DNA from: a virus
Taxonomy: Duplodnaviria; Caudoviricetes
IMG/VR virus record: IMGVR_UViG_2808606883_000001
Coordinates: 3,917-67,916 of that record
Strand: one strand, 5' to 3'
DNA: 64,000 nt
A program made the position numbers and the translations under genes. The notes beneath the pieces were generated by a model. It was not told where the DNA came from and made no database searches. It saw nothing but the letters and a program-made list of their open reading frames with translations. Positions 2,625 to 58,090 of the stretch are shown one piece after another; the first letter of the stretch is position 1; each line of letters starts with the position of its first letter.

Positions 2625-3974
2625 TTAGGTGGTCAGTGATTCAACTAGCTCGATGCGTGACCCGATCCAGCGCATCACCGGCACGGCCATGCTGTTGCCG
2701 AGCGCCTTGTAGCGCGGGCCATCAGCGGCCGGCTTGCCGCGCACGTTGATCAGGGTGTAGTCATCGGGGAAGCCTTGGAGGCGTTCACATTCGCGCGGGG
2801 TGAGGCGGCGCACGGCAGACCGGGCCATCATGAAGGGAACGCCGCCGCCGACATGGCCGTTCCCTTTGCGGAGCGTTCCCATTTCTCCGACATTGCTGCC
2901 CTGGCACTGGAACGCGACTGCCAGATGACCGCCGCCGTTCGAGTGAGAATCGGCATGCCCCATGCTGCGCATCGTCGAGGCGATGTCGCCGACGCCGAAT
3001 CCGTTTTGCCCCGATGCCTTGCAATCGAACGCGATTGCCGGTGCGTGCGCACTCGCCGCAAGCGGATGGCAACTATCGCCCGCACGCGGATGGCTGCGAT
3101 TCGTCGAGCTGGTGATCTGTGTCGTGTCGAACGGAACCGGCACGAGCGGCGTACCGCGCCCTGAGCCATCTTCGCTTGCGTCAAAGCCTTCGGCACGCAG
3201 CGCATGTGCAACCAGCAACGTCTCCGTTTCAAAATCCTGCCGCTGCGTCGATTTAGCGTTAAGGGCCGCGGCGACATCTATCGCGCCGGACGTGTTATTT
3301 CCGCCAAATGCTTGCTGGATCAGGCCGCCATTGCATTCGAAGTCGGTTCCGAATCCGCCACCGCCGCGAGTGCGCGCGCTAACGGTTGGGGCAACACTTT
3401 GCCCCGGCGCGCGGCTCGGCGCAGGATGCCCGAGCAGGCTTTCGCGCTCAAAAAGTACCGCTGCGGCATGTCGCCAATCTCCAAGATGTCCGACAACGAA
3501 CACACGGCGGCGTCGCTGGGCCACTCCGAAGAATTGAGCGTCAAGAACGCGGTAGGCGTACCCATACCCGAGTTCTGCCAGCCCACCGAGGAGGGTTCCA
3601 AAATCCCGTCCGCCGTTTGATGACAGAACACCGGGGACGTTTTCCCAGACCAGCCAGCGGGGAGCGTAGCGCTCAGCAATGGCAAGATAGGTGAGCATGA
3701 GGTTGCCACGCGGATCAGCCAGTCCCTTTCGGAGCCCGGCGACGCTGAAGCTTTGGCAGGGAGTTCCGCTGACGAGAAGATCGATAGTTGCATCGGGCCA
3801 TTCCTTGAATCTGGTCATGTCGCCGAGGTTCGGCACGGTCGGGTAGTGGTGCGCGAGAACGGCGATCGGGAACGGCTCGATCTCGCTGACGAACTCGGTC
3901 TGCCATCCGAGCGGATGCCAGGCGCAGCTTGCCGCTTCGATACCACTACACACCGATCCAAAACGAAGGGTCAT
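2625..3974 (-). CDS. C5 cytosine DNA methyltransferase
   Basis: Motifs FGSVCSGIE (I), GTPCQSFS (IV), WENVPG (VI), QRRRRVF (VIII), RRLTPRECERLQGFP (IX), YKALGNS (X). Confidence 0.95.
   Translation of the reverse strand: MTLRFGSVCSGIEAASCAWHPLGWQTEFVSEIEPFPIAVLAHHYPTVPNLGDMTRFKEWPDATIDLLVSGTPCQSFSVAGLRKGLADPRGNLMLTYLAIAERYAPRWLVWENVPGVLSSNGGRDFGTLLGGLAELGYGYAYRVLDAQFFGVAQRRRRVFVVGHLGDWRHAAAVLFERESLLGHPAPSRAPGQSVAPTVSARTRGGGGFGTDFECNGGLIQQAFGGNNTSGAIDVAAALNAKSTQRQDFETETLLVAHALRAEGFDASEDGSGRGTPLVPVPFDTTQITSSTNRSHPRAGDSCHPLAASAHAPAIAFDCKASGQNGFGVGDIASTMRSMGHADSHSNGGGHLAVAFQCQGSNVGEMGTLRKGNGHVGGGVPFMMARSAVRRLTPRECERLQGFPDDYTLINVRGKPAADGPRYKALGNSMAVPVMRWIGSRIELVESLTT
3320..3793 (-). CDS. Overprinted alternative-frame ORF inside the methyltransferase (M.EcoHK31I beta-subunit-like N-terminal part)
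   Basis: 157 aa, same strand, shifted frame, AAGGA upstream of ATG; WQNSGM...CSLSDILE..PQRYFLS.KAC.GILRRA.RRGK.LPQPL pattern. Confidence 0.6.
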   Translation of the reverse strand: MQLSIFSSAELPAKASASPGSERDWLIRVATSCSPILPLLSATLPAGWSGKTSPVFCHQTADGILEPSSVGWQNSGMGTPTAFLTLNSSEWPSDAAVCSLSDILEIGDMPQRYFLSAKACSGILRRAARRGKVLPQPLARALAAVADSEPTSNAMAA

Positions 3975-3996: not shown

Positions 3997-5361
3997 TCAA
4001 TGGCGGGTGCTCGACTCGCATAAGGCAGCGTGCCGAGGAAAGGTTTTCGTGAGTTCGCGATCGACAGCTTTGCCGAGCGAGCGCAGGAGATTCGCGAGCT
4101 GGGCGCGGTCCTGATGGCTTGCGGTCGCCTGCCGGAGTAGCCCGAAATACGAATTCGCGACTTGCATCAGGTCGCCGGGCGATGTCTCCGCGACACGCCG
4201 CAGCGCTTCATTACGCGTGCGCTTCCGCGTCTCGCGGCGCCACGGCTTGATCATCTGGCCGACGAAATCAATGCCGCGGTCGATCGGCTGAAGGATCGTC
4301 TTGCGCGGATTGATCCGCGCGCCCAGCCGCGCTGGCAGAAAGGCCGTGACGTCGGCGAGAATTTCATTCAGGCGAGCCGGCGACTCGTGCAGAAACACGA
4401 AATCGTCGACGTATCGGATGTAGTGCCGCGCACCAAGCACGTGCTTCGCACGCTGGTCGAGCACGTCAAGATATACGTTCGCGAAGAACTGACTCGACAG
4501 GTTTCCGATCGGAAGGCCGAGATGCGGAGCTTGCTCAAGCAGCCGTTTATGCGGCGGCACGAGATTTATCATCGTCGGATCGCCGTGGTACACGTAGTCG
4601 GCCCGTGGATCGTGCATCAGCACGGTTTCGGTCAGTGATCGCCAGAACGGCTCGGAAATCTTCGCGAGAAGCAGCTCGAGCAGGATTCGCTTGTCGATGC
4701 TGACGAAGAAGTTTGCGAGATCGCACTTCAGGTAGAAAGCGCGTCTGGACCAGTTCTGCGTGATCGAGCGCACTTTCGATTCGAGACGTTCGGCTGCGTA
4801 AAGCGTGCCACGGTCCTTGATGCAGGCACATGAATCGACGATGAAGCTGCGCTCGAAGCGCGGGCCGATCCGGTTGTAAAGCAGGTGATGCACGATGCGA
4901 TCGCGAAATGCAGCCGCCCAGACCTCGCGCGGCTTCGGTCGCGCGATGACGAAGCACGTTGAGCGGCCGGGCGTATAGCTGCCGTCGGCTAGCTCGTCGT
5001 AAAGGCGGCGCAGGTTGCGTTCGAGCCGCATCTCGAACGCCAACGCCGCATTGCTGTTTCGCTTCGTTCGCCGGCAGTCGAGATACGCTTCGACCAACTC
5101 GGCGAACGAAAATGGCCCTCGATCTGCGGACGGCGCGGGCGCGCAACTCGTTGTTCTGGTGGTTGTTGTTCTGGTTGCCGTTGTTGAAGTTCTGGTACCA
5201 CGCCCAGCCGGAAGTATCGTGCTATCTACGTCGCCCGGCCGATTGCTCAGCTGGGAAACTGCGCTGGACCTTTCCGCGCGCCGGCGGTCGGTTTCCTCAT
5301 TGCGCATGGCGGTGGCCTTGTGAGCCAGCGGCACGACCAGATTGATAGATCGCTCAGCCAT
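3997..5361 (-). CDS. DGR reverse transcriptase (start uncertain: 5379, 5361 or 5307)
   Basis: YLKCDLANFFVSI, GLPIGNLSSQFFANVYL (DGR-type GxxxSQ), RYVDDFV catalytic motif, GIDFVG. Confidence 0.95.
   Translation of the reverse strand: MAERSINLVVPLAHKATAMRNEETDRRRAERSSAVSQLSNRPGDVDSTILPAGRGTRTSTTATRTTTTRTTSCAPAPSADRGPFSFAELVEAYLDCRRTKRNSNAALAFEMRLERNLRRLYDELADGSYTPGRSTCFVIARPKPREVWAAAFRDRIVHHLLYNRIGPRFERSFIVDSCACIKDRGTLYAAERLESKVRSITQNWSRRAFYLKCDLANFFVSIDKRILLELLLAKISEPFWRSLTETVLMHDPRADYVYHGDPTMINLVPPHKRLLEQAPHLGLPIGNLSSQFFANVYLDVLDQRAKHVLGARHYIRYVDDFVFLHESPARLNEILADVTAFLPARLGARINPRKTILQPIDRGIDFVGQMIKPWRRETRKRTRNEALRRVAETSPGDLMQVANSYFGLLRQATASHQDRAQLANLLRSLGKAVDRELTKTFPRHAALCESSTRH
5123..5211 (-). 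repeat. DGR template repeat (TR), 89 nt
   Basis: Minus strand cc ggc tgg gcg tgg tac cag aac ttc aac aac ggc aac cag aac aac aac cac cag aac aac gag ttg cgc gcc cgc gcc gtc cgc aga: 9 AAC codons and a 14-nt G/C-only element near the 3' end. Confidence 0.97.
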
Positions 5362-5731
5362 GGAAGCCTTGACCTCCATGGAGCGGGCGATTGGTTGCGG
5401 ACTTCCTCCATGCAGTGGCCTGCTTGCCGATGCTCGTCGTCAACTCGATGGCGCGAGCATATGCGCCGCTGTCGACCTTGCGCTTGTTGAGGCCGAGCCG
5501 AAGTAGGAGATTGATCACCTGAAGGCGCTCGATGAGTTCCGTCAAATGCGGCGACTTGTCTCCGGCGACATTGGCGCGGTACACGAGCACGATGATCTCG
5601 ATGCACTCGAAGTTGATTTTCTCGCCGACCGAGCGTTTGAAGTTCCGCTGCATGTTTGTGACCACATCGGTCACGACATCCAGCAGATCTTCTGCGGCTC
5701 GATATATCGGCAGTTGGGTGTGCAGGGCCAC
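5354..5731 (-). CDS. avd: DGR accessory variability determinant (Avd-like four-helix bundle)
   Basis: 125 aa, helical, MALHTQLPIYRAA..., immediately upstream of TR and RT. Confidence 0.88.
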   Translation of the reverse strand: MALHTQLPIYRAAEDLLDVVTDVVTNMQRNFKRSVGEKINFECIEIIVLVYRANVAGDKSPHLTELIERLQVINLLLRLGLNKRKVDSGAYARAIELTTSIGKQATAWRKSATNRPLHGGQGFHG

Positions 5732-5745
5732 GATGGTTTAAATGA

Positions 5746-6231
5746 TCAAATTACCGAAGGGATAAATCTGCGGACGGCGCGGGCGCGCAACTCGCTGTCC
5801 TGGTGGATGTCGTCCTGGCCGCCGTAGTAGAAGTACTGGCACCACGCCCAGCCGGAGTTTTCCGAGTGCTGTTCGGCCGACCAGTAGGCCCGTTCCTGAA
5901 ACTCGCCCTTCAGGTTCGCGAAGAGAAGCGACTGCTCGCGGCGCGTCGGAAGCTCGCCACCGCGTTCGGCGGCCCATGCCTTCGCGTCGCTCCAGTTGAT
6001 GTCGTCCGCATCGCCGGGCAGCAGGATCAGGTAGTGGCTCAGAGATCCGTCGTCGTTCAGGATCGGGCCAGCGAATCGCTCGCCGGCGGCGAGCGGGATC
6101 GTTGCTGCGTCGATGCGATATTCCGTGGCGTGCGCCTGCGTCCTGAACGCCTCGATCATTGCGTCGATGCGCTCTTGATCCGCCTTGATGCGTGCCTGTT
6201 CGGCGTCGATCTGTTCAAGCGTGATCGTCAT
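5746..6231 (-). CDS. DGR target protein 1 (DUF1566/C-type-lectin-like with N-terminal coiled coil)
   Basis: LPTRREQ..YWS..GWAW...ELRARAVRR motifs; C-terminal VR1. Confidence 0.92.
   Translation of the reverse strand: MTITLEQIDAEQARIKADQERIDAMIEAFRTQAHATEYRIDAATIPLAAGERFAGPILNDDGSLSHYLILLPGDADDINWSDAKAWAAERGGELPTRREQSLLFANLKGEFQERAYWSAEQHSENSGWAWCQYFYYGGQDDIHQDSELRARAVRRFIPSVI
5767..5855 (-). repeat. Variable repeat VR1
   Basis: Colinear with TR; 11 mismatches, all at TR adenines. Confidence 0.97.
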
Positions 6232-6261
6232 TGCGATGCTCCGTTGTGAATGGGTGAAGGG

Positions 6262-6786
6262 TTAAATCGACAATCTGCGGACGGCGCGGGCGCGCAACTC
6301 GCCGTACTGGTGGTAGTAGCCCTGGTGGCCGTCGCCGAAGTCCTGGTACCACGCCCAGCCGGCGTATTCGGGGTCGTCGTCAGGCGTGTTCGACCAGTAC
6401 GCGGCCGGCTCGAACTGATCGCGGCACTTCTCGTACGCGATCACGAGCTCAGCACGCGTCGGCAGGTCGCCGCCGATCGACTTCGCCCAGTCCATCTGCT
6501 CTTGCCACGACGCGCGGTCGTGATCGCCGGGCAGCAGGATGGTGTGCGTGACGTCGCCATTCGCGTCGACGAAGCCGCCGAGGTAGACCTCGCCTTCGGC
6601 GAGCGCCACCGAAGTGATTCGCGCATACCGATTCAACGCTTCGGCGACCGTGGGGAGCCCAAGATCGAATTTGAAACTGCCGTCTTTCTTGACGTGAACA
6701 ATCTCTGGGTAGCCCTTCTCGTACGGGTTTAGTTCGACAGCGAACTTTTCGCCTTCAGCGAGCGGGAGAAGCTGGATCTGTTGCAT
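6262..6786 (-). CDS. DGR target protein 2 (DUF1566-like)
   Basis: ILLPGD..WAKSIGGDLPTR..YWS..GWAW..ELRARAVRR; C-terminal VR2. Confidence 0.92.
   Translation of the reverse strand: MQQIQLLPLAEGEKFAVELNPYEKGYPEIVHVKKDGSFKFDLGLPTVAEALNRYARITSVALAEGEVYLGGFVDANGDVTHTILLPGDHDRASWQEQMDWAKSIGGDLPTRAELVIAYEKCRDQFEPAAYWSNTPDDDPEYAGWAWYQDFGDGHQGYYHQYGELRARAVRRLSI
6274..6362 (-). repeat. Variable repeat VR2
   Basis: Colinear with TR; 12 mismatches, all at TR adenines. Confidence 0.97.
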
Positions 6787-6891
6787 GATTTCTCCTTGTT
6801 GATTTGAAAAGAGCGAAAAGGCGCATCACCGCCAGCACTTACCGAGATCATCGCCGTTAGGCTTCATCGTGGCTGGGGTGGGCGCGTGAGG

Positions 6892-7665
6892 TTAGGCGGC
6901 TTGCTTGCGAAGCGCGTGCTCGTAGTGATCTACAAAGACGGCAAACTCCCACAGATCTTTCTCCATCGCTTCGATAAACGAATCGTCGCGTTTGACTTCG
7001 ACCATGGTGAATTGCTTGCCGACAGATGCGAGCGCGGGACAGTAGAGGCCTACGTGCCACCAATTCCGCCCACATAGCCACATTCCTCCCATAGCCTGCT
7101 CTTGCACTTCGGTAACGTCATGCTCAAGCACGATCGCGCGGAGTTTGTCGGGCGCAAGGAAACACTTGTATTCGCTGCCGCCATCGGGATCAATCAACCC
7201 GTCCGCACTGCAGCCGAAGCGGCCGTCCTCGGTTCGAACGAATCCTGCGCGTTTGACGAATAGTCCGGTGAGCGCTTCGTGCTCCATCCTCGCTTCGGGC
7301 TCGAGATCTCGTCCGCGGCGCATTTGCCATGTTTCGAAGCCTTCATCCAACGGCGCACCGCTGATGCGCTCGACGGCCAGTCGGAAAGCGTAGTCCTTCG
7401 CAACGTCAGACCAATCACCCACCTTCTCGCCCTTGAGTGCGCGCTTGACGCCCTCCGAACTGGGCATCGTCTTGTAGCCGGCGAACTCTGCTGCTTGCTT
7501 CTCCGTCATGCCACTGATAACCGCATCAACATATTTCTGTTGGCGCTCGTCCAGGCAGTTGACCCTTTCTCGCACCGTCGAAAACATGCTGGCCGTTATG
7601 CAGCCGGCTCTAGCTCGAAACCACTCTTCGCCGCCCTGCGGGCACTCGATAATCTGAACGCTCAT
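6892..7665 (-). CDS. YqaJ-like/lambda-exonuclease-family recombination nuclease
   Basis: QGGEEWFRARAGCITAS, RGRDLEPEAR, GCSADGLI, EYKC motifs. Confidence 0.88.
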   Translation of the reverse strand: MSVQIIECPQGGEEWFRARAGCITASMFSTVRERVNCLDERQQKYVDAVISGMTEKQAAEFAGYKTMPSSEGVKRALKGEKVGDWSDVAKDYAFRLAVERISGAPLDEGFETWQMRRGRDLEPEARMEHEALTGLFVKRAGFVRTEDGRFGCSADGLIDPDGGSEYKCFLAPDKLRAIVLEHDVTEVQEQAMGGMWLCGRNWWHVGLYCPALASVGKQFTMVEVKRDDSFIEAMEKDLWEFAVFVDHYEHALRKQAA

Positions 7666-12179: not shown

Positions 12180-13180
12180 CCCAATGGCCGGTCATAAGAT
12201 TGGTTGGCTTGGTCTTGGCGATGACGCGGCCGGAAATCATCCAGCTCGAGATGCGCACTCGTAGCGCCGCGAATATGCCGAAGTCCTCACCGGCTTTGAT
12301 GCCCGAACCGGCGCACAACGAAAACTTAAATTTGGAGCCGCTAACGGCGGCAAGTCGAGCGATGGATAAGGGTCGCTAGGTCTCCACTTGGTAGACATTT
12401 AAGGGGACCGTCTTGAAGTGGGAAGCCATCCAGTCCCCGTAAGAACACTCATTGAATGCGCTTACGGGGCAGCTGCTTACGGCAGCCAGTCGAACGTACT
12501 TGTTTCTCGCCAGTTGAGCACTCAGTCGTCATCGAGTGGGCTCGGTACTGCTGCAATTCTTCTGGGTGAGTGCTGGCGCTATACAGCGACCTTCGGCTAA
12601 CCTACTGCGATGCGCCAGACACTTCGGCCACGGCGTCTTATACGGCTCAGATTCGCGAATACTCAGTCGCGTAGGGAGTTCAGCGACTCACTCAGAAGAA
12701 CTGCTTGCCCGCATCGGCACCGGCTACACCCTGCTATGCAGGCTCCGGCTACCGATGCGGTGAAACTACTGCTACCCTTCCCGGGTTGTTACTCAGCTCA
12801 TTGATTACCACGCCATCAATGATCCATTTCGGCGCCTTTCGGAAGCATTCCCGTCGATACGGTTCAGCCATTTCTGCTCTTCGTACTACTCTCATGTGGC
12901 AGGAGTCAGACATGTGTGCGCTCGGGCTTTCGCCGTGACACCTTTTATCGCTACGTTGTGGATCGAATGTCGTCAGGGCTGGCGGCTTGGCCGGTCGTGA
13001 CTCCGGCTACCCGTTTTAACTGTTGTAACCCCACCTGCGCTGCGCGGAGCCGAAGAACTTGGTAGTTAATCGGGATGGCTCCCATTCAATGCGCTAGGGT
13101 TGCAGGCCGGCTCCTGCTTGCGTTGCGTGTCTACTCTCCACGCCGCAAGTCGCCAGCACTGACTAACACTCGATTCCACG
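12180..13180 (-). ncRNA. Candidate long structured non-coding RNA in the early-left transcript (strand inferred from context)
   Basis: About 1 kb without a credible ORF; many inverted repeats (12435-12443/12461-12469; 12557-12571/12686-12700; 12709-12717/12752-12760; 12798-12805/12815-12822). Confidence 0.5.
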
Positions 13181-13181
13181 C

Positions 13182-13193
13182 TGTTAAAGAACA
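13182..13193 (-). promoter_or_regulatory. boxA-like antitermination site
   Basis: TGTTCTTTAACA, one mismatch from the boxA consensus TGCTCTTTAACA, oriented with the leftward operon. Confidence 0.55.
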
Positions 13194-13820: not shown

Positions 13821-14201
13821 TTACTGAATAATCAGTCTGCGGACGGCGCGGGCGCGCAACTCGTAGCCCTGGAGGAGGTTGCCCTGGTTGCCGTAGCCGA
13901 AGTGCTGGCACCACGCCCAGCCGGCATAGGCTGGGTCGGTGTCCGGCTCGTTCGACCAATATGCATCGCGTTCGAACTGATCGCGATGATTGGCCAGAAG
14001 CACCAGATGCTCGATACGAGTCGGCAGATCGCCACCGATGCTCTTTGCCCAACCCATCTGGACCTGCCAGGTCGCGTCGTCGTTGTCACCCGGAAGCAGA
14101 ATGACGTGATGCAGCTCGCCGGCCGTGTTGCTGATCCTTCCGATGTAGATCTCGCCTTCGTTGAGTTCAGGCAGTTCGACTTCTTGCTTCATTGCTTGCA
14201 T
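13821..14201 (-). CDS. DGR target protein 3 (remote, DUF1566-like)
   Basis: GGAGG RBS before ATG 14201; paralogue of target 2; C-terminal VR3. Confidence 0.92.
   Translation of the reverse strand: MQAMKQEVELPELNEGEIYIGRISNTAGELHHVILLPGDNDDATWQVQMGWAKSIGGDLPTRIEHLVLLANHRDQFERDAYWSNEPDTDPAYAGWAWCQHFGYGNQGNLLQGYELRARAVRRLIIQ
13836..13924 (-). repeat. Variable repeat VR3
   Basis: Colinear with TR; 13 mismatches, all at TR adenines. Confidence 0.97.
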
Positions 14202-15182: not shown

Positions 15183-15713
15183 TTAGCCGGGAAGGTGTCC
15201 TTCGTGCGCGCGGACATCTAGCACTGTCTTGTTGTCTGCCGCGAGATCGCATTCATAGGTCACGGGTGTATAGGCCCCGAATCCATTCTGGAATTCGGCT
15301 TTATCCCCAACGTATGTGATCGTGCCTGCCGCCTTGTCGGCCCAGCGGAAGCGACTGAACTTCAGTTCGAATGTGCCGTCCGTCCAGCGCACGCTATGCG
15401 CCGCCAGCCGCTCGACCTGATCCTTGCAATAGACACTGGCCGCCACAATGCCCTTGTCGCCGAGGCACTGGATATCGTCCTTCTTGCAGACGTCAGATTC
15501 CGGCTTTCCCGTCTTCGCGCTCGAGCCAGCAGCAGGTCTGCCGTTGGATGACAGACCGATAGCAAGATATCCCACAAACCCGAGGGCCAGGATCGCAGCA
15601 ATGGCTTGCCGCGCCTTGGTGGCTGGTTTCTTGACTGGTGCGCCACACTTCACGCAGGCGGTCGCCTTGTTGCTTATCTCCGTGCCGCATTCCCGGCACT
15701 TAATCAGAGCCAT
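15183..15713 (-). CDS. Zinc-ribbon plus transmembrane protein co-transcribed with cI
   Basis: CRECGTEISNKATACVKCG, one TM segment, Cys-containing exported domain. Confidence 0.8.
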   Translation of the reverse strand: MALIKCRECGTEISNKATACVKCGAPVKKPATKARQAIAAILALGFVGYLAIGLSSNGRPAAGSSAKTGKPESDVCKKDDIQCLGDKGIVAASVYCKDQVERLAAHSVRWTDGTFELKFSRFRWADKAAGTITYVGDKAEFQNGFGAYTPVTYECDLAADNKTVLDVRAHEGHLPG

Positions 15714-15725
15714 GGCTTTCCCCGA

Positions 15726-16502
15726 TCAGGATGGCGCCCATTCGTCTACATAGTGAGTGAAGGAGGCCATCGCTCCAATCACCTCGAGGCCATCCCTCTC
15801 GCTATGCAGCGTCGCGAAGTCGCTGTTGAGTGGGACGAGTTCGAACGTCATCTTGCCTCGTTCGTCTAGCCCCAGCTCTTTGTACTTGCGCACGACCGAG
15901 CTGCCGCCGCGGATCCGGCCCAGCACGATGTCGCCCGGTTTTGGGGCGCGAGCTGGATCAATCGTTACCACGACATGAAGCCGATCAAACTTAGGCTCCA
16001 TTGCGGCGTCATGGATCAGAACCGCGAACGCGGCCCCCGACATCGGCTGGTGAATCGTTACGGTGCCGATGGGTGCGCCGATAGTGTTGGGATCAGTCTG
16101 GGGAGTCATCTGAGCGGCCATCTCATACGACAAAACAGGGATCGTTCTAGGCAATGGTAGAACGTTTGCGCCAAATTGTACCGACGTTTCCCAGATCTTA
16201 AGACGACGCTGAGTAGGAATTTCCCTAAGGAGGGGCGTCTTCTCGCCTCTTATCGATGCATCGTCCGCACTTGTTTTGTGCTTGGGCGACTCGCGCATTT
16301 CCCCTTTGCCGCTTTGTAGCCAGGTTGCGCTTACCCCTCCCAACGCTCGGGCGAGCGCCAGGATGTGTTTTGATCCTTTGTTTCTTCCCCGTTCGATCTG
16401 CGCAACAGTCGATTGCGAAATGCCTGCAGCCTTGCCCAGCTCATCCTGAGACATTCCCAAGCTCTCGCGCGTCTCGCGGACTCTATCGCCGAAAGTTCTC
16501 AT
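15726..16502 (-). CDS. cI: CI-like repressor (XRE HTH plus degenerate S24 domain)
   Basis: N-terminal HTH (SQDELGKAAGISQSTVAQIERG), C-terminal S24-like fold (LVPLNSDF), divergent from cro. Confidence 0.92.
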   Translation of the reverse strand: MRTFGDRVRETRESLGMSQDELGKAAGISQSTVAQIERGRNKGSKHILALARALGGVSATWLQSGKGEMRESPKHKTSADDASIRGEKTPLLREIPTQRRLKIWETSVQFGANVLPLPRTIPVLSYEMAAQMTPQTDPNTIGAPIGTVTIHQPMSGAAFAVLIHDAAMEPKFDRLHVVVTIDPARAPKPGDIVLGRIRGGSSVVRKYKELGLDERGKMTFELVPLNSDFATLHSERDGLEVIGAMASFTHYVDEWAPS

Positions 16503-18872: not shown

Positions 18873-20180
18873 GTGCAAGAAGAAACGCCGCAACTTGAAG
18901 ACGGGTACACTCGGATAGCCAATGAATTGCTCGACGCAATCATTGCCTTCCCGTTTTCGGCTAGGCAAATGCGCGTTCTGATGGGTTTGATCCGGAAGTT
19001 GTACGGGTACAACAAGAAGCGGGATGACATTTCTGCTTCGCAGATTGGAGAGCTTTGCGCGATGCACCGCTCGCATGTTTCCGAAACGCTGGGCCACCTT
19101 GCGGCCATGAAGGTCATCTTCAAGGAGCCAGGCCGCTTCGGCAACATGATCGAGATCAACAAGAATTACCGGCAGTGGCTTGAGCTCGATTCCAATGGTG
19201 AACCCAAGGAACGAGTGCAGCGAAACAAAATCGAGTGCACCTTCCACTACACATATCGAACGACGAAAGTCGCGACGGGTGAGTTCTATCTGGGCGTCAG
19301 ATCTTGCGCATGCCATCCGAACCAGGACCGCTATATCGGCTCTGGCAATTGGATTGCGACCGTAAAGGCGGCTGAACTGAGGAAGGAGGTCATCGCCACG
19401 TACGGGAGTCGGGAAGAAGCCGAGCAAGCGGAAAAGGATCTGATTCGTGCCAGTTGGGGCAATCCGTTACTCCGGAACACGACGCTCTATCAGCGTACAG
19501 AACCTGTACAGGGTGTACAGAATCTGTACAGGGGTACAGAAGATGTACAGGGTGTACAGAATGAGGGTGGCGCTAGTACAGAATCTGTACAGGTCGATAG
19601 TACAGATTCTGTACACACAAAAGACAACCTTCCAAAAGACATAGAACAAAAGACAAAAATCTTCCCGCGCTCGCTTCGCGAACGCTTCGAGATTTTTTGG
19701 TCGGCTTACCCGCGTAAAACGGAAAAGCAGGACGCCCTGAAGGCGTTCGAAAAGCTTAACCCTGATGACGACTTGCTCGCTGAGATCTTGGCGGCCGTTG
19801 CCCTCGCCAAGAGATCGGAGCAATGGAAGGTCAAGAAGTATATCAAGCACGGCGCGACATGGCTGAATAAAGCCTGCTGGCAGGATGAGTTGACCGTGTC
19901 CTACACGGAAGAGCAGCTCGAGGTTATGGCGCTTTACAACGAGTGCCTTGGTGATTCGCTGGGTCTGGCGGATGTGGATGTCTTTGTTGGCGAGCGCGCA
20001 GATGCAATTGACGATTTCCGGACTTTCGTTGCCAAAGACCCGGCGTTTTGGAAGCGGTATTTCCCGTGGGTAGCGGAGAACGTTGATGTACCTCCGAGAT
20101 GTGGATTTGACTGGCTTATCGGTCGTGACGGTTTTACGAAAGTGAAAGGCGGACAATTTAACAAGGACGCAGCAGCATGA
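18873..20180 (+). CDS. Lambda O-like replication initiator with inserted GIY-YIG-like domain
   Basis: LEDGYTRIANELLDAI..LIRKLYGYNKK N-terminus; internal iterons; C-terminal FEIFWSAYPRK..HGATWLN; followed by DnaB. Confidence 0.88.
   Translation: MQEETPQLEDGYTRIANELLDAIIAFPFSARQMRVLMGLIRKLYGYNKKRDDISASQIGELCAMHRSHVSETLGHLAAMKVIFKEPGRFGNMIEINKNYRQWLELDSNGEPKERVQRNKIECTFHYTYRTTKVATGEFYLGVRSCACHPNQDRYIGSGNWIATVKAAELRKEVIATYGSREEAEQAEKDLIRASWGNPLLRNTTLYQRTEPVQGVQNLYRGTEDVQGVQNEGGASTESVQVDSTDSVHTKDNLPKDIEQKTKIFPRSLRERFEIFWSAYPRKTEKQDALKAFEKLNPDDDLLAEILAAVALAKRSEQWKVKKYIKHGATWLNKACWQDELTVSYTEEQLEVMALYNECLGDSLGLADVDVFVGERADAIDDFRTFVAKDPAFWKRYFPWVAENVDVPPRCGFDWLIGRDGFTKVKGGQFNKDAAA
19495..19614. repeat. 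Replication origin iterons
   Basis: Five palindromic units GTACAG-N3-(C/A)TGTAC at 19495, 19515, 19534, 19576, 19600, plus a half site at 19554. Confidence 0.85.
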
Positions 20181-31141: not shown

Positions 31142-31213
31142 TTAGGGCTATGGTAACGGTAGCCGGCCGGCCTCCAAATCCGTGCAGTCCCGGTTCAAAT
31201 CCGGGGCCCTATG
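31142..31213 (+). tRNA. tRNA-Trp(CCA), atypical (weak anticodon stem, no encoded CCA)
   Basis: Anticodon loop CTCCAAA, T-arm CCCGG-TTCAAAT-CCGGG, acceptor TAGGGC/GCCCTA. Confidence 0.65.
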
Positions 31214-31289
31214 CAGAAGGTGAAATTAGCGACGCGCTTGGCGATAGCCACCTACGGGTCACGCGGTCGCGCGAAAGTAGCCTCCTTAT

Positions 31290-31368
31290 CTGAGTGTATT
31301 GTCAGTCTGGTCAGACGGCCGCGCCTGGAACGCGGAGGACGGTGGTTCGAATCCATCCACTCAGACCA
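31290..31368 (+). tRNA. tRNA-Pro(TGG)
   Basis: Acceptor CTGAGTG/CACTCAG, stem CCGCG/CGCGG around CCTGGAA, TTCGAAT loop, ACCA end. Confidence 0.9.
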
Positions 31369-31376
31369 CATCACGC

Positions 31377-31452
31377 AGCGGGATGGAGCAGTTGGAAGCT
31401 CGTCGGGCTCATAACCCGAAGGTCGACGGTTCAAGTCCGTCTCCCGCTACCA
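31377..31452 (+). tRNA. tRNA-Met(CAT), initiator-like
   Basis: TCGGG-CTCATAA-CCCGA with three G:C pairs, A11:U24, ACCA end. Confidence 0.93.
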
Positions 31453-37772: not shown

Positions 37773-39737
37773 ATGCCGCTTGAGAAAGGATCATCCAACG
37801 AAGTAGTCGGACACAACATCGCCGAACTTCGCGCGGCAGGGCATTCGGAGAAGCAGGCGATCGCCATTGCAATGAAGGAAGCTGGCCGCAGCAAAGTCGA
37901 CGCCGAGCTCGTCAAGGCCGCCGGCACTCTGATCATTGCCGATGGCAACATTCTGTTCCTGCGCCGCGGCAACGGCGGCGATCATCCCAGCGAATGGGCT
38001 TTCCCTGGCGGTCACATCGAATCGGGCGAATCTCCCGAAGAGGCCGCCCGCCGCGAGACTGCCGAAGAAACCGGGTACGAGCCGCACAAGCTCATCGAGC
38101 TCGGCACGACGAACGATGGTGCGGTCGAATTCACGACCTTCTATCACGAGTGCCGGACATTCGACGTCAAGTTGAGTGACGAGAGCACGGAATACCTGTG
38201 GAGTCCGATCGGCTCATGGCCAGAGCCACTGCATCCAGGATGCCGGTTCGTGCTCGAGTCGGATGCATTCAAGGAGATCCGCAAGGCGCACATGACCGAG
38301 ACGGAAGTCGCCCAAGCGATCATGCTTGGCGAGCTTCCGTCGCCACAGTTTTATCGGAACATGTGGCTCTTCGCGATCCGCATCACCGGAACCGGGACGT
38401 CGTACCGCTCCATCGATGATGAGTATGTATACCGTCCACCAGAAAACTATCTGAACGATGAGTTTCTGACGCGCTGCAATGGCCTATCGGTCATCGTCGA
38501 TCACCCCAAAGCCCGCACGCTTAACTCGGCAGAGTTCAAGAAGCGCAATGTCGGCTCGATCCTGCTCCCGTTCATTGCCAGAGCCGAAGTTGTGGGAGAT
38601 TGTATTGTCGCCGTGGCGGATCGCGAGGCCGGCGATGAAGTGTGGGGCATCGCTAAGGTATATGACGAAGCGACTGCGACGCTCATGTCGAAAGAGCAGC
38701 TCTCCACGTCGCCATCCGTCATCTTCCGGAATCCAGATGTAGAAAACTCCACCATTACCCTCGACGGTGGACAGACATTGTTGATCGAGGGAAAACCGTG
38801 CCTGCTCGACCACATCGCGATCTGCGAAGTCGGCGTGTGGGATAAGGGCGGCCCGCCATCTGGCGTATCCACCACTAACGTTCAGGAAGCTGACGACATG
38901 AATGAAGACGTGAAGGCCAAGGCGGACGCCGAGGCGAAAGAAGAACTCGAAGCGCGCGCCAAAGCCGACGCGGAAGCGAAAGCCAAGGCTGATGCTGAAG
39001 AAGAAAAGGCGAAAGCCGATGCTGAGCGCTGGGACAAGCTGATGTCGGCTGTCGATTCGCTGTGCAAGCGCATGGACTCGTACGACAACGAGAAGAACGA
39101 CAAGAAGGCTGATGCCATGCCGGCGGAGGAAATGAACGTCGCCGACAAGAAGGCCGATTCGGAAGACGAAAAGGCCAAGGAAAAGGAGGCCGAGGCTGAA
39201 AAGATGAAGGCAGAGGCGAAGGAAGAGGAAGCCAAGGCCGACGCAGCGAAGCGGGAAAGCGCCCTGCTCGAGCGCGTTGCGCAACTCGAACAGATGCTCG
39301 TGCAGACGGCAAAGCTCACGCCTAAGCCCCTGAACGATGCCGACTATGCTGCGATGGCCGATGCCCAAGCCAAGGCCGATAGCGTGTACAGCGCGTTTGG
39401 CAAGTCGGCTAATCGCCCGCTGAACGGCGAAGACCTCCTGTCGTATCGCAAGCGCCTCGCCGCTCCGATGAAGTCGCACAGCGCCGCATGGAAGGACGTC
39501 GATCTGTCGAAGCTCGAAGCTGCGGTGTTCGAAATCGCTGAGTCGGCTATCTATGCCGACGCGATGGAAGCGGCGATTCACCCGAGTATGGCGCCGGAAG
39601 CTGGCCTGCGTGCAGTTACCCGCGATACGGGCACCGGCCACAAGATCACGACGTTTTACGGTCACCCGAACGCCTGGATGGATGATTTCCGCGCCCCCCG
39701 CATGAACGGCGATATTTCGCTGCCGAATAAGCACTGA
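37773..39737 (+). CDS. NUDIX hydrolase fused to DUF2213-like head maturation protease/scaffold
   Basis: Nudix box [23 protein letters not shown]; [21 protein letters not shown]; K/A/D/E-rich scaffold tail. Confidence 0.85.
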
Positions 39738-41716: not shown

Positions 41717-41817
41717 CTGTAAGCCCTGCGGATAGGTGGCGCAACCGACAAGCGCGTTCCCCCTGGCGCGTTTCCGCAGGCATTCCTCACAGGGGTTTCC
41801 TATCAGGGGAACTACAC

Positions 41818-52558: not shown

Positions 52559-52953
52559 GAACCTGGAACCGAGTCATGTATTCGGATGGGTCTTGGGTCT
52601 GGCAAGAAGTGCAAACGGCATCGAACGGCGACAATACGGATGTCTGGCTAACGACGCTAATCCAGACGCTACAACTGGTCACGGGGGAATCCCCCTTCTA
52701 TTCGAACCGCGGCATACCTGCGATTCAATCCGTGGTCCAGCAGGTATTTCCTGACTTCTATGTCAACCAGATCCAACAGCAGTTTTCGCCCTACTTCGCC
52801 AGCCTGATCATCAGCAAGCTTCCATCGGCCACGCCGACATACCAGATCAACATTATCACGAAGCAAGGCGCGCAGATCAACGGCACGTACTCGAAGCAAA
52901 CCGGCGCACTGCTTGACGGCTCCTTCATCCTGAATAAATCCCTGCTCGTATGA
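52555..52953 (+). CDS. Baseplate wedge protein (gp25-like position)
   Basis: GESPFYSNRGIP motif. Confidence 0.65.
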   Translation: MRTWNRVMYSDGSWVWQEVQTASNGDNTDVWLTTLIQTLQLVTGESPFYSNRGIPAIQSVVQQVFPDFYVNQIQQQFSPYFASLIISKLPSATPTYQINIITKQGAQINGTYSKQTGALLDGSFILNKSLLV

Positions 52954-54476
52954 AAAGAATCCTAGCCATTCTGCTGCTCTTGTCATCGACGGCTTGGGCG
53001 CAGGTCGTCACATTCGCGCCAGGGCAGGTTTTAACGGCGGCGCAGCTCAATACCTCGTTTGCCTCCGTTTTGCCGCTCACGGGCGGCACGCTGACGGGGC
53101 CTCTCACAGCCCCTACCGCAACATTCACCAACAGTTACCTGGCGAGTGCCTACATCAGCGGTGGCACGATCAACAACACCGTTATTGGCGGAACCTATCC
53201 AGCCAACGGGACATTCAACAACCTCAATGTAACTGGCTCGATCGCGATAAGTTCCTTATCGACCTCTAATGCGGTTATTTCTGGAGGGTCAATAAACTCA
53301 ACGCCCGTTGGGAATACCTCGCCCTCGTCCGGCTCATTCACAACGATGGGCGCGAGCGGCGCCGTCACGCTCACCAACACAACTCAGTCAACGTCCGCTA
53401 CCACTGGAGCGCTGATTGTTTCGGGTGGAGTTGGCATTGCCAAAGATATATATAGTGGCGGCACGTTCCATGGCGGAGTGATTTCCACATCCGGGACCAT
53501 TGATTCCATACCGATTGGAAGTACCACTCCTAGCACTGGGGCGTTCACCACATTAAGAGCCACTGAGCCGCAATACAACGTGCTGATCGGCGGTGGCGCG
53601 AGCGCAACCTTCGGCGTTGTCGCACCCAGCGCAACGTCTGGAGTGCCGCTGATATCGCAAGGCTCCGCGGCAAATCCCGCCTTTGGTACCGTCATTCCTG
53701 CTGGTGGGGGTACGGGCCTCACAACGATCACCGCGCATGGCGTCATGCTCGGCGAAGGGACGGGGAATGTTGCGACAGTTGGACCAAGCGCGACTATTGG
53801 GCAGGCGCTGATCAGTCAAGGTTTAAGTGCTGATCCTATCTTTGGATATCCGACTGGAACACTCATCGGATTCCAGCGGTTTACATCTAGCGGCACTTAT
53901 ACACAGTCCGCTGGAACGAATAGCGTAATTGTTGAAATTCAAGGTGCCGGTGGCGCTGGAGGCGGCGCGGCAGCAACTGGCGCAGGACAGTTCTCATGCG
54001 GCTCGGGCGGAGCTGCGGGCGGCTACATTCGTCATCGCATGACGAGCGGTTTCAGCGGAGCAACCGTTACCATCGGCGCAGCAGGTTCTGGTTCTTCAGG
54101 TGCGGCTGGCGCGGCTGGCGGCAATACCTCGTTTGCAGGCATCACTGCGAATGGCGGAAGCGGCGGCGCATCCAATGGTCCGTCAACGAGCGCAGCAACG
54201 GCACCATCTGCCGGAGGCACCGCTTCAGGCGGCAGCATCATCAATTCGAGCGGCGCGCCAGGCCTCTGGTGTGTCGGCAATGCGACTCTGGCTTATGGCG
54301 GCATTGGCGCGAACTCGCTGCTTGGCGCAGGAGGGATCGAGGTTGCTAACGGCACGGGAGGTGCGGCTACCGGCTATGGCGCAGGCGGAGGTGGTGCGGT
54401 GATCGGGGCTAGCAGTGGGGCCCAAACAGGCGGTGCCGGTGCGCAAGGCGTCGTGATCGTCTGGGAGTACAACTGA
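52950..54476 (+). CDS. Gly/Ser/Thr-rich fibre-like protein with N-terminal signal-like segment
   Basis: LPLTGGTLTGPL repeats; C-terminal glycine-rich domain ending GAQGVVIVWEY. Confidence 0.7.
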   Translation: MKRILAILLLLSSTAWAQVVTFAPGQVLTAAQLNTSFASVLPLTGGTLTGPLTAPTATFTNSYLASAYISGGTINNTVIGGTYPANGTFNNLNVTGSIAISSLSTSNAVISGGSINSTPVGNTSPSSGSFTTMGASGAVTLTNTTQSTSATTGALIVSGGVGIAKDIYSGGTFHGGVISTSGTIDSIPIGSTTPSTGAFTTLRATEPQYNVLIGGGASATFGVVAPSATSGVPLISQGSAANPAFGTVIPAGGGTGLTTITAHGVMLGEGTGNVATVGPSATIGQALISQGLSADPIFGYPTGTLIGFQRFTSSGTYTQSAGTNSVIVEIQGAGGAGGGAAATGAGQFSCGSGGAAGGYIRHRMTSGFSGATVTIGAAGSGSSGAAGAAGGNTSFAGITANGGSGGASNGPSTSAATAPSAGGTASGGSIINSSGAPGLWCVGNATLAYGGIGANSLLGAGGIEVANGTGGAATGYGAGGGGAVIGASSGAQTGGAGAQGVVIVWEYN

Positions 54477-56671: not shown

Positions 56672-58090
56672 ATGTCTGTCGAGCTCTTCGCCAATAACGC
56701 TCAGACCACCCTCGCGAGCGCGGTTAGCAATACCGCAACGACCATCACGCTTTCGTCTGGTGCGGGCGCACTTTTCCCCAATCCGACCGGAAGCCAGTTC
56801 TTCCGTGTCACGCTGATTGATGCGACGACGGGGCTTCTCCATGAGATTTGCTATTGCACGGCGCGTTCCGGCGATACCCTGACGGTCACGCGCGGACAAG
56901 AAGGCACAACCGCCCTGACTTGGAGTGCCGGCGATACGGTCGCCAATTTGCCGACCGCGGGTGCGATGGCAAATCTGACGCAGCAGCAGCAGATTCAGCA
57001 GAACCTGTACAACTATGCCGCCGATACGGGTACGGCGAACAGCTATGTTGTCACCCTGAGCCCGGCTTCGCTCGCCACTCCTGCGGCTGGAGCCTTGATC
57101 TACTTCAAGGCGGCAAACGCAAATACCAGCTCAAGTACTCTCACGGTCAATGGTGGAACGTCTTACCCACTTGTCGGTGGCGCGCACACTGCGCTGCAGG
57201 GGGGTGAGATTGTCGCTGGCGGTTTCTGCATCGCCGAGTGGAACGCCGCACTGTCGAGTTACGTTCTCCTCGAGTGCACCGGCGCCGCCCTCCAAGTCGC
57301 CCTCGCCACGCAGAGTCAGCATGCGGTGCAGTTCGGGCAGGTCTCGGGCGTTGTGGGATCGGTGCGAAATCTGGTGATGAGCGTCACGGCTGCGTCCGCT
57401 ACGGCTACGCTTACGGCCGATGAGATCATCGTCGAAACAGCGCTCGGCGGTCTGCGCTACTGCCTCGCATCGTTCAACAAGACAGTCAACCTCGCGACGA
57501 CTGGCGCGGGCGGCATGGACACCGGCAGCGCACCGACGTCGGGCTATGTTGCGCTGTACGCGATCTACAATCCGACGACGCAGACGGCGGCGCTGCTCGC
57601 GACGAATGCAACGAGCGTGGTGGCTCCGAATGTGTACGGTGGCGCTAACATGCCGTCTGGCTATACGGCTAGTGGACTCATTTCGGTATGGCCGACGAAT
57701 TCAAGCGGGCAGTTCATCGCTGGCCTACAAACAGATCGCGTTCTGAGCTGCTACTCGTCTTCGGCAGGTCAGGCCCTGAACTCTTCGGTTACGCAATCAT
57801 CGCCTACCGCGCTCTCCATTGCGTCGCTGGTCCCGAAGAATGCCAAATATGTGACTGGCAATCTTCAGATGAGTTCCACCGCAGCATCGACCGAAAATTT
57901 GGGTGTCTATCCCACTAGCTTTACTTTTGGCGTGGTAGGAAATTTGTTTGCTGCGGCCGGATCCTCTGCAACTATCTCTCAATCATTCGGGCGTTTGCCG
58001 TTAGGTGTTCAGCAGACGATTTACTACACAGCTACCAATACCGCAGGAACACCTAGTTTTCAGATTATCATCACTGGATACGAAATCTAA
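56672..58090 (+). CDS. Tail fibre protein
   Basis: FANNAQTTL N-terminus; YAADTGTANSY; ATQSQHAV; GGMDTGSAP; PSGYTAS modules. Confidence 0.85.
   Translation: MSVELFANNAQTTLASAVSNTATTITLSSGAGALFPNPTGSQFFRVTLIDATTGLLHEICYCTARSGDTLTVTRGQEGTTALTWSAGDTVANLPTAGAMANLTQQQQIQQNLYNYAADTGTANSYVVTLSPASLATPAAGALIYFKAANANTSSSTLTVNGGTSYPLVGGAHTALQGGEIVAGGFCIAEWNAALSSYVLLECTGAALQVALATQSQHAVQFGQVSGVVGSVRNLVMSVTAASATATLTADEIIVETALGGLRYCLASFNKTVNLATTGAGGMDTGSAPTSGYVALYAIYNPTTQTAALLATNATSVVAPNVYGGANMPSGYTASGLISVWPTNSSGQFIAGLQTDRVLSCYSSSAGQALNSSVTQSSPTALSIASLVPKNAKYVTGNLQMSSTAASTENLGVYPTSFTFGVVGNLFAAAGSSATISQSFGRLPLGVQQTIYYTATNTAGTPSFQIIITGYEI

Follow-up and report, generated by a model that had tools for sequence, protein, structure and literature searches.

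The stretch of DNA analysed here, called the window below, covers positions 3917-67916 (64,000 nucleotides) of the 67.9-kb IMG/VR provirus IMGVR_UViG_2808606883_000001, and its host element is a temperate Burkholderia myovirus prophage. It carries a diversity-generating retroelement (DGR) with a reverse transcriptase (RT), an accessory protein (Avd), one template repeat (TR) and three variable repeats (VRs), each at the 3' end of a small target gene. The DGR itself is certain and, judged by its sequence, it is complete and recently active. We propose with moderate confidence that its three targets, which are paralogous proteins with a predicted C-type-lectin domain, are a non-virion, intracellular set of hypervariable binding proteins. 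This reading is favoured because of the position of the genes, the absence of an anchoring module from target 3, the independence of the cassette from the virion modules and the lack of export signals. We infer early expression and cytoplasmic action from gene position and the absent export signals.

Read along the minus strand, the cassette consists of target 2, target 1, Avd, the structured RNA RT-15, the TR and the RT, and is followed by a C5 cytosine methylase. Target 3 is remote, 8.6 kb upstream of the cassette and ~1.5 kb downstream of the repressor gene cI. The features are as follows, with lengths in amino acids (aa) or nucleotides (nt):

6262..6786, minus strand: target 2, 174 aa, ribosome-binding site AAGGAG 5 nt upstream of the ATG; residues 61-174 form the C-type-lectin domain
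5746..6231, minus strand: target 1, 161 aa, GGAG 8 nt before the ATG; heptad helix at residues 5-31, linker, C-type-lectin domain
13821..14201, minus strand: target 3, 126 aa, GGAGG before the ATG; essentially a bare lectin domain
5767..5855, minus strand: VR1, at the 3' terminus of target 1, with 11 differences from the TR, each at an adenine of the TR
6274..6362, minus strand: VR2, at the 3' terminus of target 2, with 12 differences from the TR, each at an adenine of the TR
13836..13924, minus strand: VR3, at the 3' terminus of target 3, with 13 differences from the TR, each at an adenine of the TR
5123..5211, minus strand: TR, 89 nt, reading SGWAWYQNFNNGNQNNNHQNNELRARAVRR in the VR frame, with 9 AAC codons
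5354..5731, minus strand: Avd accessory protein, a four-helix bundle; PF22296 bAvd at 46.9 bits (cut-off 40)
5210..5392, minus strand: RT-15 structured RNA (Rfam RF03018), full-length cmscan match at 171 bits against a gathering score of 82
3997..5379, minus strand: DGR reverse transcriptase, RVT_1 at E=6e-13, with the GNLSSQ (SQ) motif in its translation

At 126, 161 and 174 aa the targets are as small as the first-pass annotation had described them. All mismatches between the TR and the three VRs (36/36) are found at template adenines, and a pattern with N at each TR adenine has exactly 4 copies in the window, with 0 expected. The nine AAC codons of the TR are the classic DGR design. The VRs end 15-21 nt short of the target stop codons. 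As regards the initiation of mutagenic homing sites (IMH at the VR, IMH* at the TR) and a homing hairpin, a GC-rich 27-nt end is common to the TR and the VRs, with divergence after CGCAGA; fold analysis found no significant hairpin downstream of the VRs. Among relatives and the window together, 132 TR/VR pairs have 1515/1562 mismatches (97%) at TR adenines. The nearest relative has only 87% DNA identity over the cassette, which is too distant for very recent activity to be read from the comparison.

The RT-15 RNA adjoins the TR on the 5' side and reaches over the stop codon of avd. Avd also matches the NCBIfam model DivGenRetAVD at E=4e-10, under the cut-off of that model, and has no PADLOC match. 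The best PADLOC match of the RT is a generic RT model, and the SQ dipeptide has been used as a criterion for RTs of the DGR type (PMC3521204). The sequence signature shows how the element diversifies its targets. With Avd and a TR-containing RNA bearing the RT-15 structure, the RT makes a copy of the 89-nt template in which errors fall at adenines, and this copy replaces the last ~30 codons of the three paralogous genes. As a result ~12 residues are randomised on the ligand-binding side of the C-type-lectin domain, which is 115 residues long.

A further feature of the RT is that its frame (3997-5379) is open across the entire TR. The conserved RT residues start near 5100, and from the TR to the first of them (FSFAELVEAYL) there is no ATG or GTG, the sole common start being a TTG within that motif. 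Because the frame is open through the TR and no ATG or GTG follows it, the TR may be translated as part of the RT N-terminus.

The fold of the targets was addressed with AlphaFold2, using family alignments. Target 1 was modelled at a mean predicted local distance difference test (pLDDT) score of 85, and target 2 at pLDDT 97-99 over residues 61-174, with 52-69 for the N-terminus. The top Foldseek match of target 1 was 8q4e (E=3.6e-4), with C-type lectins ranking next, among them trimeric collectins with a neck and a carbohydrate-recognition domain. The best structural match of target 2 (VIA-align) was the C-terminal domain of Lcl, again 8q4e, with Z 13.3 and a root-mean-square deviation of 3.6 Å over 114 residues, followed by the C-terminal domain of Bdellovibrio Bd2740 (8oks) and then by dozens of C-type lectins. 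In these models targets 1 and 2 are C-type-lectin (Lcl_C/DUF1566-like) domains, which bears out the lectin fold proposed in the first-pass annotation, and target 3 can be included through the 63% identity between its lectin domain and that of target 2; the domain of target 1 is 41-50% identical to either. The gathering threshold of Pfam Lcl_C/DUF1566 (PF07603), 34.9 bits, was not reached by targets 2, 1 and 3 (28.5, 19.3 and 16.8 bits, with E=2e-6 for target 2 and E=0.0086 for target 3), so the fold assignment rests on structure. Close homologues are named 'DUF1566 domain-containing protein' by NCBI. Lcl of Legionella pneumophila is a secreted collagen-like adhesin which is not diversified, and has 19-26% sequence identity to the targets.

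Target 1 had also been credited with an N-terminal coiled coil, and there is good evidence for this in the model. The predicted helix at residues 5-31 (pLDDT 82-93) has Ile8, Ile15, Ile22 and Phe29 every seven residues, and the orthologues of target 1 occur in a 161-aa and a 154-aa form, which differ in the helix by one heptad (7 residues). By analogy with the collectins, target 1 probably multimerises through this heptad neck. Across 40 orthologues the column entropy is 1.97 bits at residues 131-147 and 0.74 bits elsewhere; the helix, at 0.88 bits, matches the lectin core in conservation. Target 2 carries an insertion of ~53 residues (6606-6786, minus strand), which is flanked by LAEGE repeats and modelled with low AlphaFold confidence. 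This insertion is missing in the closest relatives, where DNA homology begins from 6605 on, and is present in some distant representatives, e.g. P0154.

The variable sites also have a distinct composition, described here by counts from related sequences, which are not a statistical test. In 132 natural VRs, 91% of the AAC-templated codons have at least one change. Tyr (20%), Asp, Gly and Ser are common at these sites, whereas Cys, Ala, Pro and Val are rarer than the base frequencies predict, a composition typical of binding surfaces. This bears on the idea that the targets have no current function and that the DGR is a selfish passenger, which would agree with the PHROG match of the targets to a family of unknown function. 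We regard it as extremely unlikely, given the biased amino-acid composition at the variable sites, the intact reading frames, the strong conservation of the parts outside the VR, helix and C-terminal tail included, and the large size of the target-2 family (961 clusters at 50% identity).

The cassette recurs in other genomes. The order of short target, coiled-coil target, Avd, TR and RT is found at ~80 IMG/VR loci and in the Burkholderia cenocepacia phage Magia, and the IMG/VR loci usually have 1-2 more small targets upstream, with recombination genes upstream where detectable. One ENA contig carries a remote target upstream of RecT, and its Avd is preceded by two small genes. The Pseudomonas aeruginosa phage Haboob and the Pseudomonas syringae phage Cruim01 have two small targets, Avd, the RT-15 RNA (annotated in Cruim01) and the RT in the leftward arm, accompanied by recombination, single-strand-binding and methylase genes. 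The lectin domains of these Pseudomonas phages are of a different subtype; the early-arm position is unchanged. A distant two-target cassette (targets, Avd, RT and integrase; contig L093, 1-14977) is directly downstream of a PRTRC cluster consisting of PRTRC_E, Prok_Ub, E2, JAB and ThiF, and virion genes are not visible in these 15 kb.

The best-studied phage DGR is different in several respects. The DGR of Bordetella phage BPP-1 (mtd-avd-TR-brt) shares with the window an SQ-motif RT, Avd, the TR, a C-terminal VR in a C-type-lectin fold and adenine-specific mutagenesis. Its target Mtd, a trimeric protein of 381 aa at the tip of the tail fibre, is encoded among the structural genes. In contrast, the early arm of the window encodes three targets, each only 126-174 aa long, and its conserved RNA (RT-15) is 5' of the TR, whereas the helper RNA of BPP-1 seems to be on the other side of the template.

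As an element type the cassette is already known from Magia (2021) and from Wu et al. (2018). Magia (MT701587, genes 44-47 and 57) has ~83% nucleotide identity over the cassette and, like the window, has a remote target near the immunity region and the cassette in the leftward arm. The two differ in that the capsid and sheath of Magia are unrelated to those of the window, and in that its gene 47 is 120 aa long whereas target 2 here carries the 53-aa N-terminal insertion. The Magia announcement pointed to a potential DGR made up of the RT, Avd and, as short targets with IMH-like regions, genes 47 and 57 (PMC7883833), and the Magia record annotates genes 47 and 57 as lectin-fold proteins (MT701587). 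Gene 46, the orthologue of target 1, was not named as a target, and only a generic role in adaptation or host range was proposed (PMC7883833). The targets of the window share their VR and domain class with category d of Wu et al. (CLec2; Legionella LdtA), about half of whose members are short proteins with DUF1566 alone; prophage targets at non-adjacent positions have been described as well (PMC5758913). LdtA is a surface lipoprotein (PMC5758913), whereas the family seen here has neither a lipobox nor a signal peptide. Multi-VR DGRs have been found in Burkholderia and Ralstonia by DiGReF in 2012 (PMC3521204), and Yan et al. reported DGRs to be frequent in Burkholderia and Pseudomonas, with a single TR able to serve several DUF1566 targets. 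Viral targets have been classed as mostly tail proteins, the remainder being of unknown role (Roux et al., PMC8144416). Early-operon position and cytoplasmic action are not discussed in the survey of Wu et al. (PMC5758913), and in a limited literature collection no papers were found on the early-operon position, function, timing, virion presence, localisation or ligands of such targets.

The position of the genes is the first argument for an intracellular role. PHROG and Pfam scans give the window the layout of a lambdoid temperate myovirus, with a tyrosine integrase at the left end of the provirus and a minus-strand gene run, with overlapping stops and starts, from ~16.5 kb to the left end, i.e. 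over the interval between cI and the integrase end. Rightward, at 18.9-21.6 kb, are genes for an O-like initiator and a DnaB helicase. The plus strand at 34-58 kb encodes terminase, portal, capsid, sheath, a lytic tape-measure-like protein, baseplate and two fibre genes. The following genes give the context of the targets:

15726..16502, minus strand: cI-like repressor with HTH_3 and Peptidase_S24 (Pfam), heading the leftward arm
6892..7665, minus strand: YqaJ-type exonuclease (PF09588, E=2.1e-9), directly upstream of target 2
2625..3974, minus strand: C5 cytosine DNA methyltransferase (PF00145, E=1.5e-52), directly downstream of the RT

The targets, exonuclease, methylase and repressor are all on the minus strand, and the replication and late genes are on the opposite strand. 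An HNH-AP2 gene comes after target 3. The earlier placement of the targets in a leftward operon, beside recombination and methylase genes, agrees with this map, in which that operon starts at the repressor and the neighbours in question are the YqaJ exonuclease and the C5 methylase.

The same map could also be read in favour of a role in the lysogen, in which the prophage would express the targets as variable decoys or sensors to capture the proteins of superinfecting phages, for exclusion or defence. Target 3 is 1.5 kb downstream of cI on the same strand, and comes after a Zn-ribbon membrane protein in a rex/sie-like position. In lambda the slot just downstream of cI holds rex/sie-type exclusion genes. 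Terminator-like hairpins ahead of targets 2 and 3 resemble a moron layout, and Magia has an annotated terminator before gene 47, at the place matching that ahead of target 2, which is:

6787..6891, minus strand: intergenic hairpin and U-rich tract, terminator-like, upstream of target 2; -29.7 kcal/mol, z = -1.4, not significant

The fold upstream of target 3 is likewise not significant. A 2024 PNAS paper (PMC10907252) describes cellular DGRs of multicellular bacteria that diversify putative cytoplasmic antigen sensors, and is a precedent for proposed intracellular targets in conflict systems; the distant two-target cassette that adjoins the PRTRC ubiquitin-like cluster also points this way. 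However, those systems are cell-encoded, putative conflict systems, whereas the window targets are single-domain phage proteins with no effector domain, and they have no PADLOC match. No promoter-like site was found directly upstream of target 2 or 3, and gene overlaps with the recombination genes suggest a single repressed operon. We consider a role in the lysogen unlikely.

A second argument for the intracellular reading comes from the lack of export signals. The three window targets are acidic and have no hydrophobic N-terminus. A simple hydropathy and lipobox screen found a signal peptide, lipobox or membrane segment in 0/266 relatives, made up of 146 family representatives (50% identity clusters) and 120 target-1 homologues, so the first-pass statement that the targets have no signal peptide holds well beyond the window. 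The sole hydrophobic stretch in the screened family is the core strand around HxILLPGD. Target 1 has 2046 homologues, which among the 120 listed are mostly Burkholderia or metagenome proteins, and 171 IMG/VR stretches encode a relative of it. Stand-alone small forms dominate, with 2046 near-length homologues against 18 longer ones. The longer forms include one with a Lar-like zinc ribbon, a 529-aa Trinickia form, one extending into the RT, and one with SurA/rotamase, for which the evidence is from Pfam only. The first three, which were read directly, look like read-through fusions with neighbouring genes. The Lar-like and Trinickia forms have an internal Met just ahead of the lectin domain. 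None of these three looks like an informative domain architecture. The Lar-like form (P0122, 238 aa, on an NCBI contig of 20.8 kb) has a restriction-alleviation zinc ribbon fused in frame or read through to a target-3-like lectin domain, and is a further sign that these genes have an early anti-restriction neighbourhood.

The third argument concerns the virion. The window has two genes for tail fibres or their assembly:

56672..58090, plus strand: tail-fibre gene matching PHROG tail-fibre families; no TR-like copy
52950..54476, plus strand: second tail-fibre or fibre-assembly-like gene (PHROG 863, 6202, 454); no TR-like copy

The first-pass annotation had seen no VR in the fibre genes. This is now supported on a wider basis, since the adenine pattern in the window and a BLAST of the TR over the whole 67.9-kb provirus find only the TR and VR1-3, with no copy beyond the known 4 and none in a tail gene. 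Nor is there an Mtd-like location in or beside the tail module, as the target genes occupy 5.7-6.8 and 13.8-14.2 kb of the minus strand and the tail genes 44.9-58.1 kb of the plus strand.

What is new in this analysis is that the cassette is uncoupled from the virion modules. The premise of the comparison is that a docking partner on the particle for the conserved surfaces of the targets should co-occur with the cassette. Pfam PF04984 (phage sheath family) was discarded as a marker, having given no match in four cultured relatives, although one of them, Magia, carries an annotated sheath; because it is silent on this sheath it is uninformative, and the window's own proteins were used. No homologues of the window's capsid and sheath were detectable in Magia, Haboob, Cruim01 or G001, the last being a complete provirus and the closest cassette relative, with target 1 95% identical. 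The 'Shewanella' phage QDWS is the only compared relative with the capsid and sheath of the window. Among 50 cassette-bearing IMG/VR records, of which 43 are at least 90% complete, the capsid occurs in 5, the sheath in 6 and the fibre encoded at 56672-58090 in 26. On these comparisons the cassette is a mosaic unit of the early arm, independent of the head and tail-body modules. A fixed virion docking partner appears less likely, because the cassette travels independently of the capsid and sheath modules. A partner at the fibre tip is weakened as an idea, as sharing of a fibre is expected in phages of one host genus and 24/50 records are without it.

These results bear directly on the proposal that the targets are virion-borne accessory adhesins, docked non-covalently on the fibres or baseplate as three interchangeable tips, so that the DGR switches tropism as in BPP-1. 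On the evidence so far this seems somewhat unlikely: the genes are in the repressor-proximal leftward arm, on the strand opposite to all structural genes, target 3 has only ~12 residues ahead of its lectin domain and no obvious docking module, and the cassette is found with unrelated capsid and sheath modules. Several points nevertheless favour the adhesin proposal and weigh against an intracellular, non-virion role. The closest solved structures, i.e. the structural neighbours Lcl (8q4e) and the C-terminal domain of Bd2740 (8oks), are extracellular adhesins or adhesin tips, Bd2740 being a fibre-tip adhesin. Virion proteins likewise have no signal peptides. The missing export signal does not, therefore, separate cytoplasmic action from a particle-borne adhesin. 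The fibre encoded at 56672-58090 is shared by the 26/50 records mostly in its C-terminal half. The phage DGR targets characterised by experiment to date are all receptor-binding virion proteins (PMC5758913, PMC8144416). The targets had no family match in PADLOC, NCBIfam or annotated PHROG, none of which is an anti-defence library. The presumed early timing is read from gene position, and promoter-like hits (4, with 6.7 expected) and terminator-like hits (25, with 20.9 expected) were not above chance. As these scans are at chance and the folds are not significant, no claim is made on transcription units.

If the targets do act inside the cell, selection could operate on them. Each infecting genome would express its own variants early, and the link between genotype and phenotype would be kept. 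A variant allele that leaves in a virion would be expressed in the next cell from that one genome only. Release at lysis and extracellular action, in which the targets would bind surface glycans or debris and so mask receptors or aid the spread of progeny, would also fit proteins of this kind, as lectin folds typically bind surface glycans or proteins and lysis frees cytoplasmic proteins that have no signal peptide. However, a diffusing product uncouples genotype from phenotype, which makes the selection of DGR variants inefficient, and the genomic context gives this idea no support; it is very unlikely.

Under the intracellular reading, a phage population would carry a ready library of binders, the most plausible use of which would be to bind and neutralise variable host proteins (e.g. 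defence proteins) or proteins of competitor phages. We suggest only tentatively, with more doubt than belief, that the targets are a counter-defence or anti-competitor library of intracellular inhibitors, an antibody-like repertoire. Retrohoming during replication would give each progeny genome its own alleles, to be expressed first at the next infection, and some members of every burst would already neutralise a defence or competitor protein that had never been met before. Target 1 would be the multivalent form, with multimerisation through the heptad neck raising avidity, and targets 2 and 3, in which the domain stands alone or almost alone, would be the monovalent forms.

The DGR biology of phages is understood almost wholly through tropism switching by tail fibres, and the cassette described here represents a large recurrent class. 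Intracellular action, if true, would mean that phages have a programmable binder library against host defences or rival phages, and the small 115-residue scaffolds would be attractive for engineering. A counter-defence role, if true, would be a new use of DGRs in phages, distinct from tropism switching. Cultured phages with a matching layout make the question tractable, namely Magia, vB_E192a, vB_PL1 and the Pseudomonas phages Haboob and Cruim01.

Several other features of the window were observed. In the leftward arm, 15183-15713 (minus strand) encodes a 176-aa zinc-ribbon protein with a hydrophobic segment, directly downstream of cI, and 12180-13193 is a region of ~1 kb with no convincing open reading frame (ORF) or Rfam match at gathering score. 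In the O-like initiator (18873-20180, plus strand), residues 115-204 match a PHROG homing-endonuclease family, which is consistent with an inserted nuclease domain. Three tRNA genes (Trp, Pro and Met) were predicted by ARAGORN at 31142-31452 on the plus strand, between the replication and packaging modules, with Pro and Met confirmed by Rfam. In the head module, a 654-aa ORF (37773-39737, plus strand) has a Nudix/MutT hydrolase match at residues 40-169 and also matches PHROGs annotated as portal or head-maturation protease. Just past the major capsid gene, at 41725-41794 on the plus strand, there is an Rfam int-alpA RNA, which scores 43 bits against a gathering score of 35.8.

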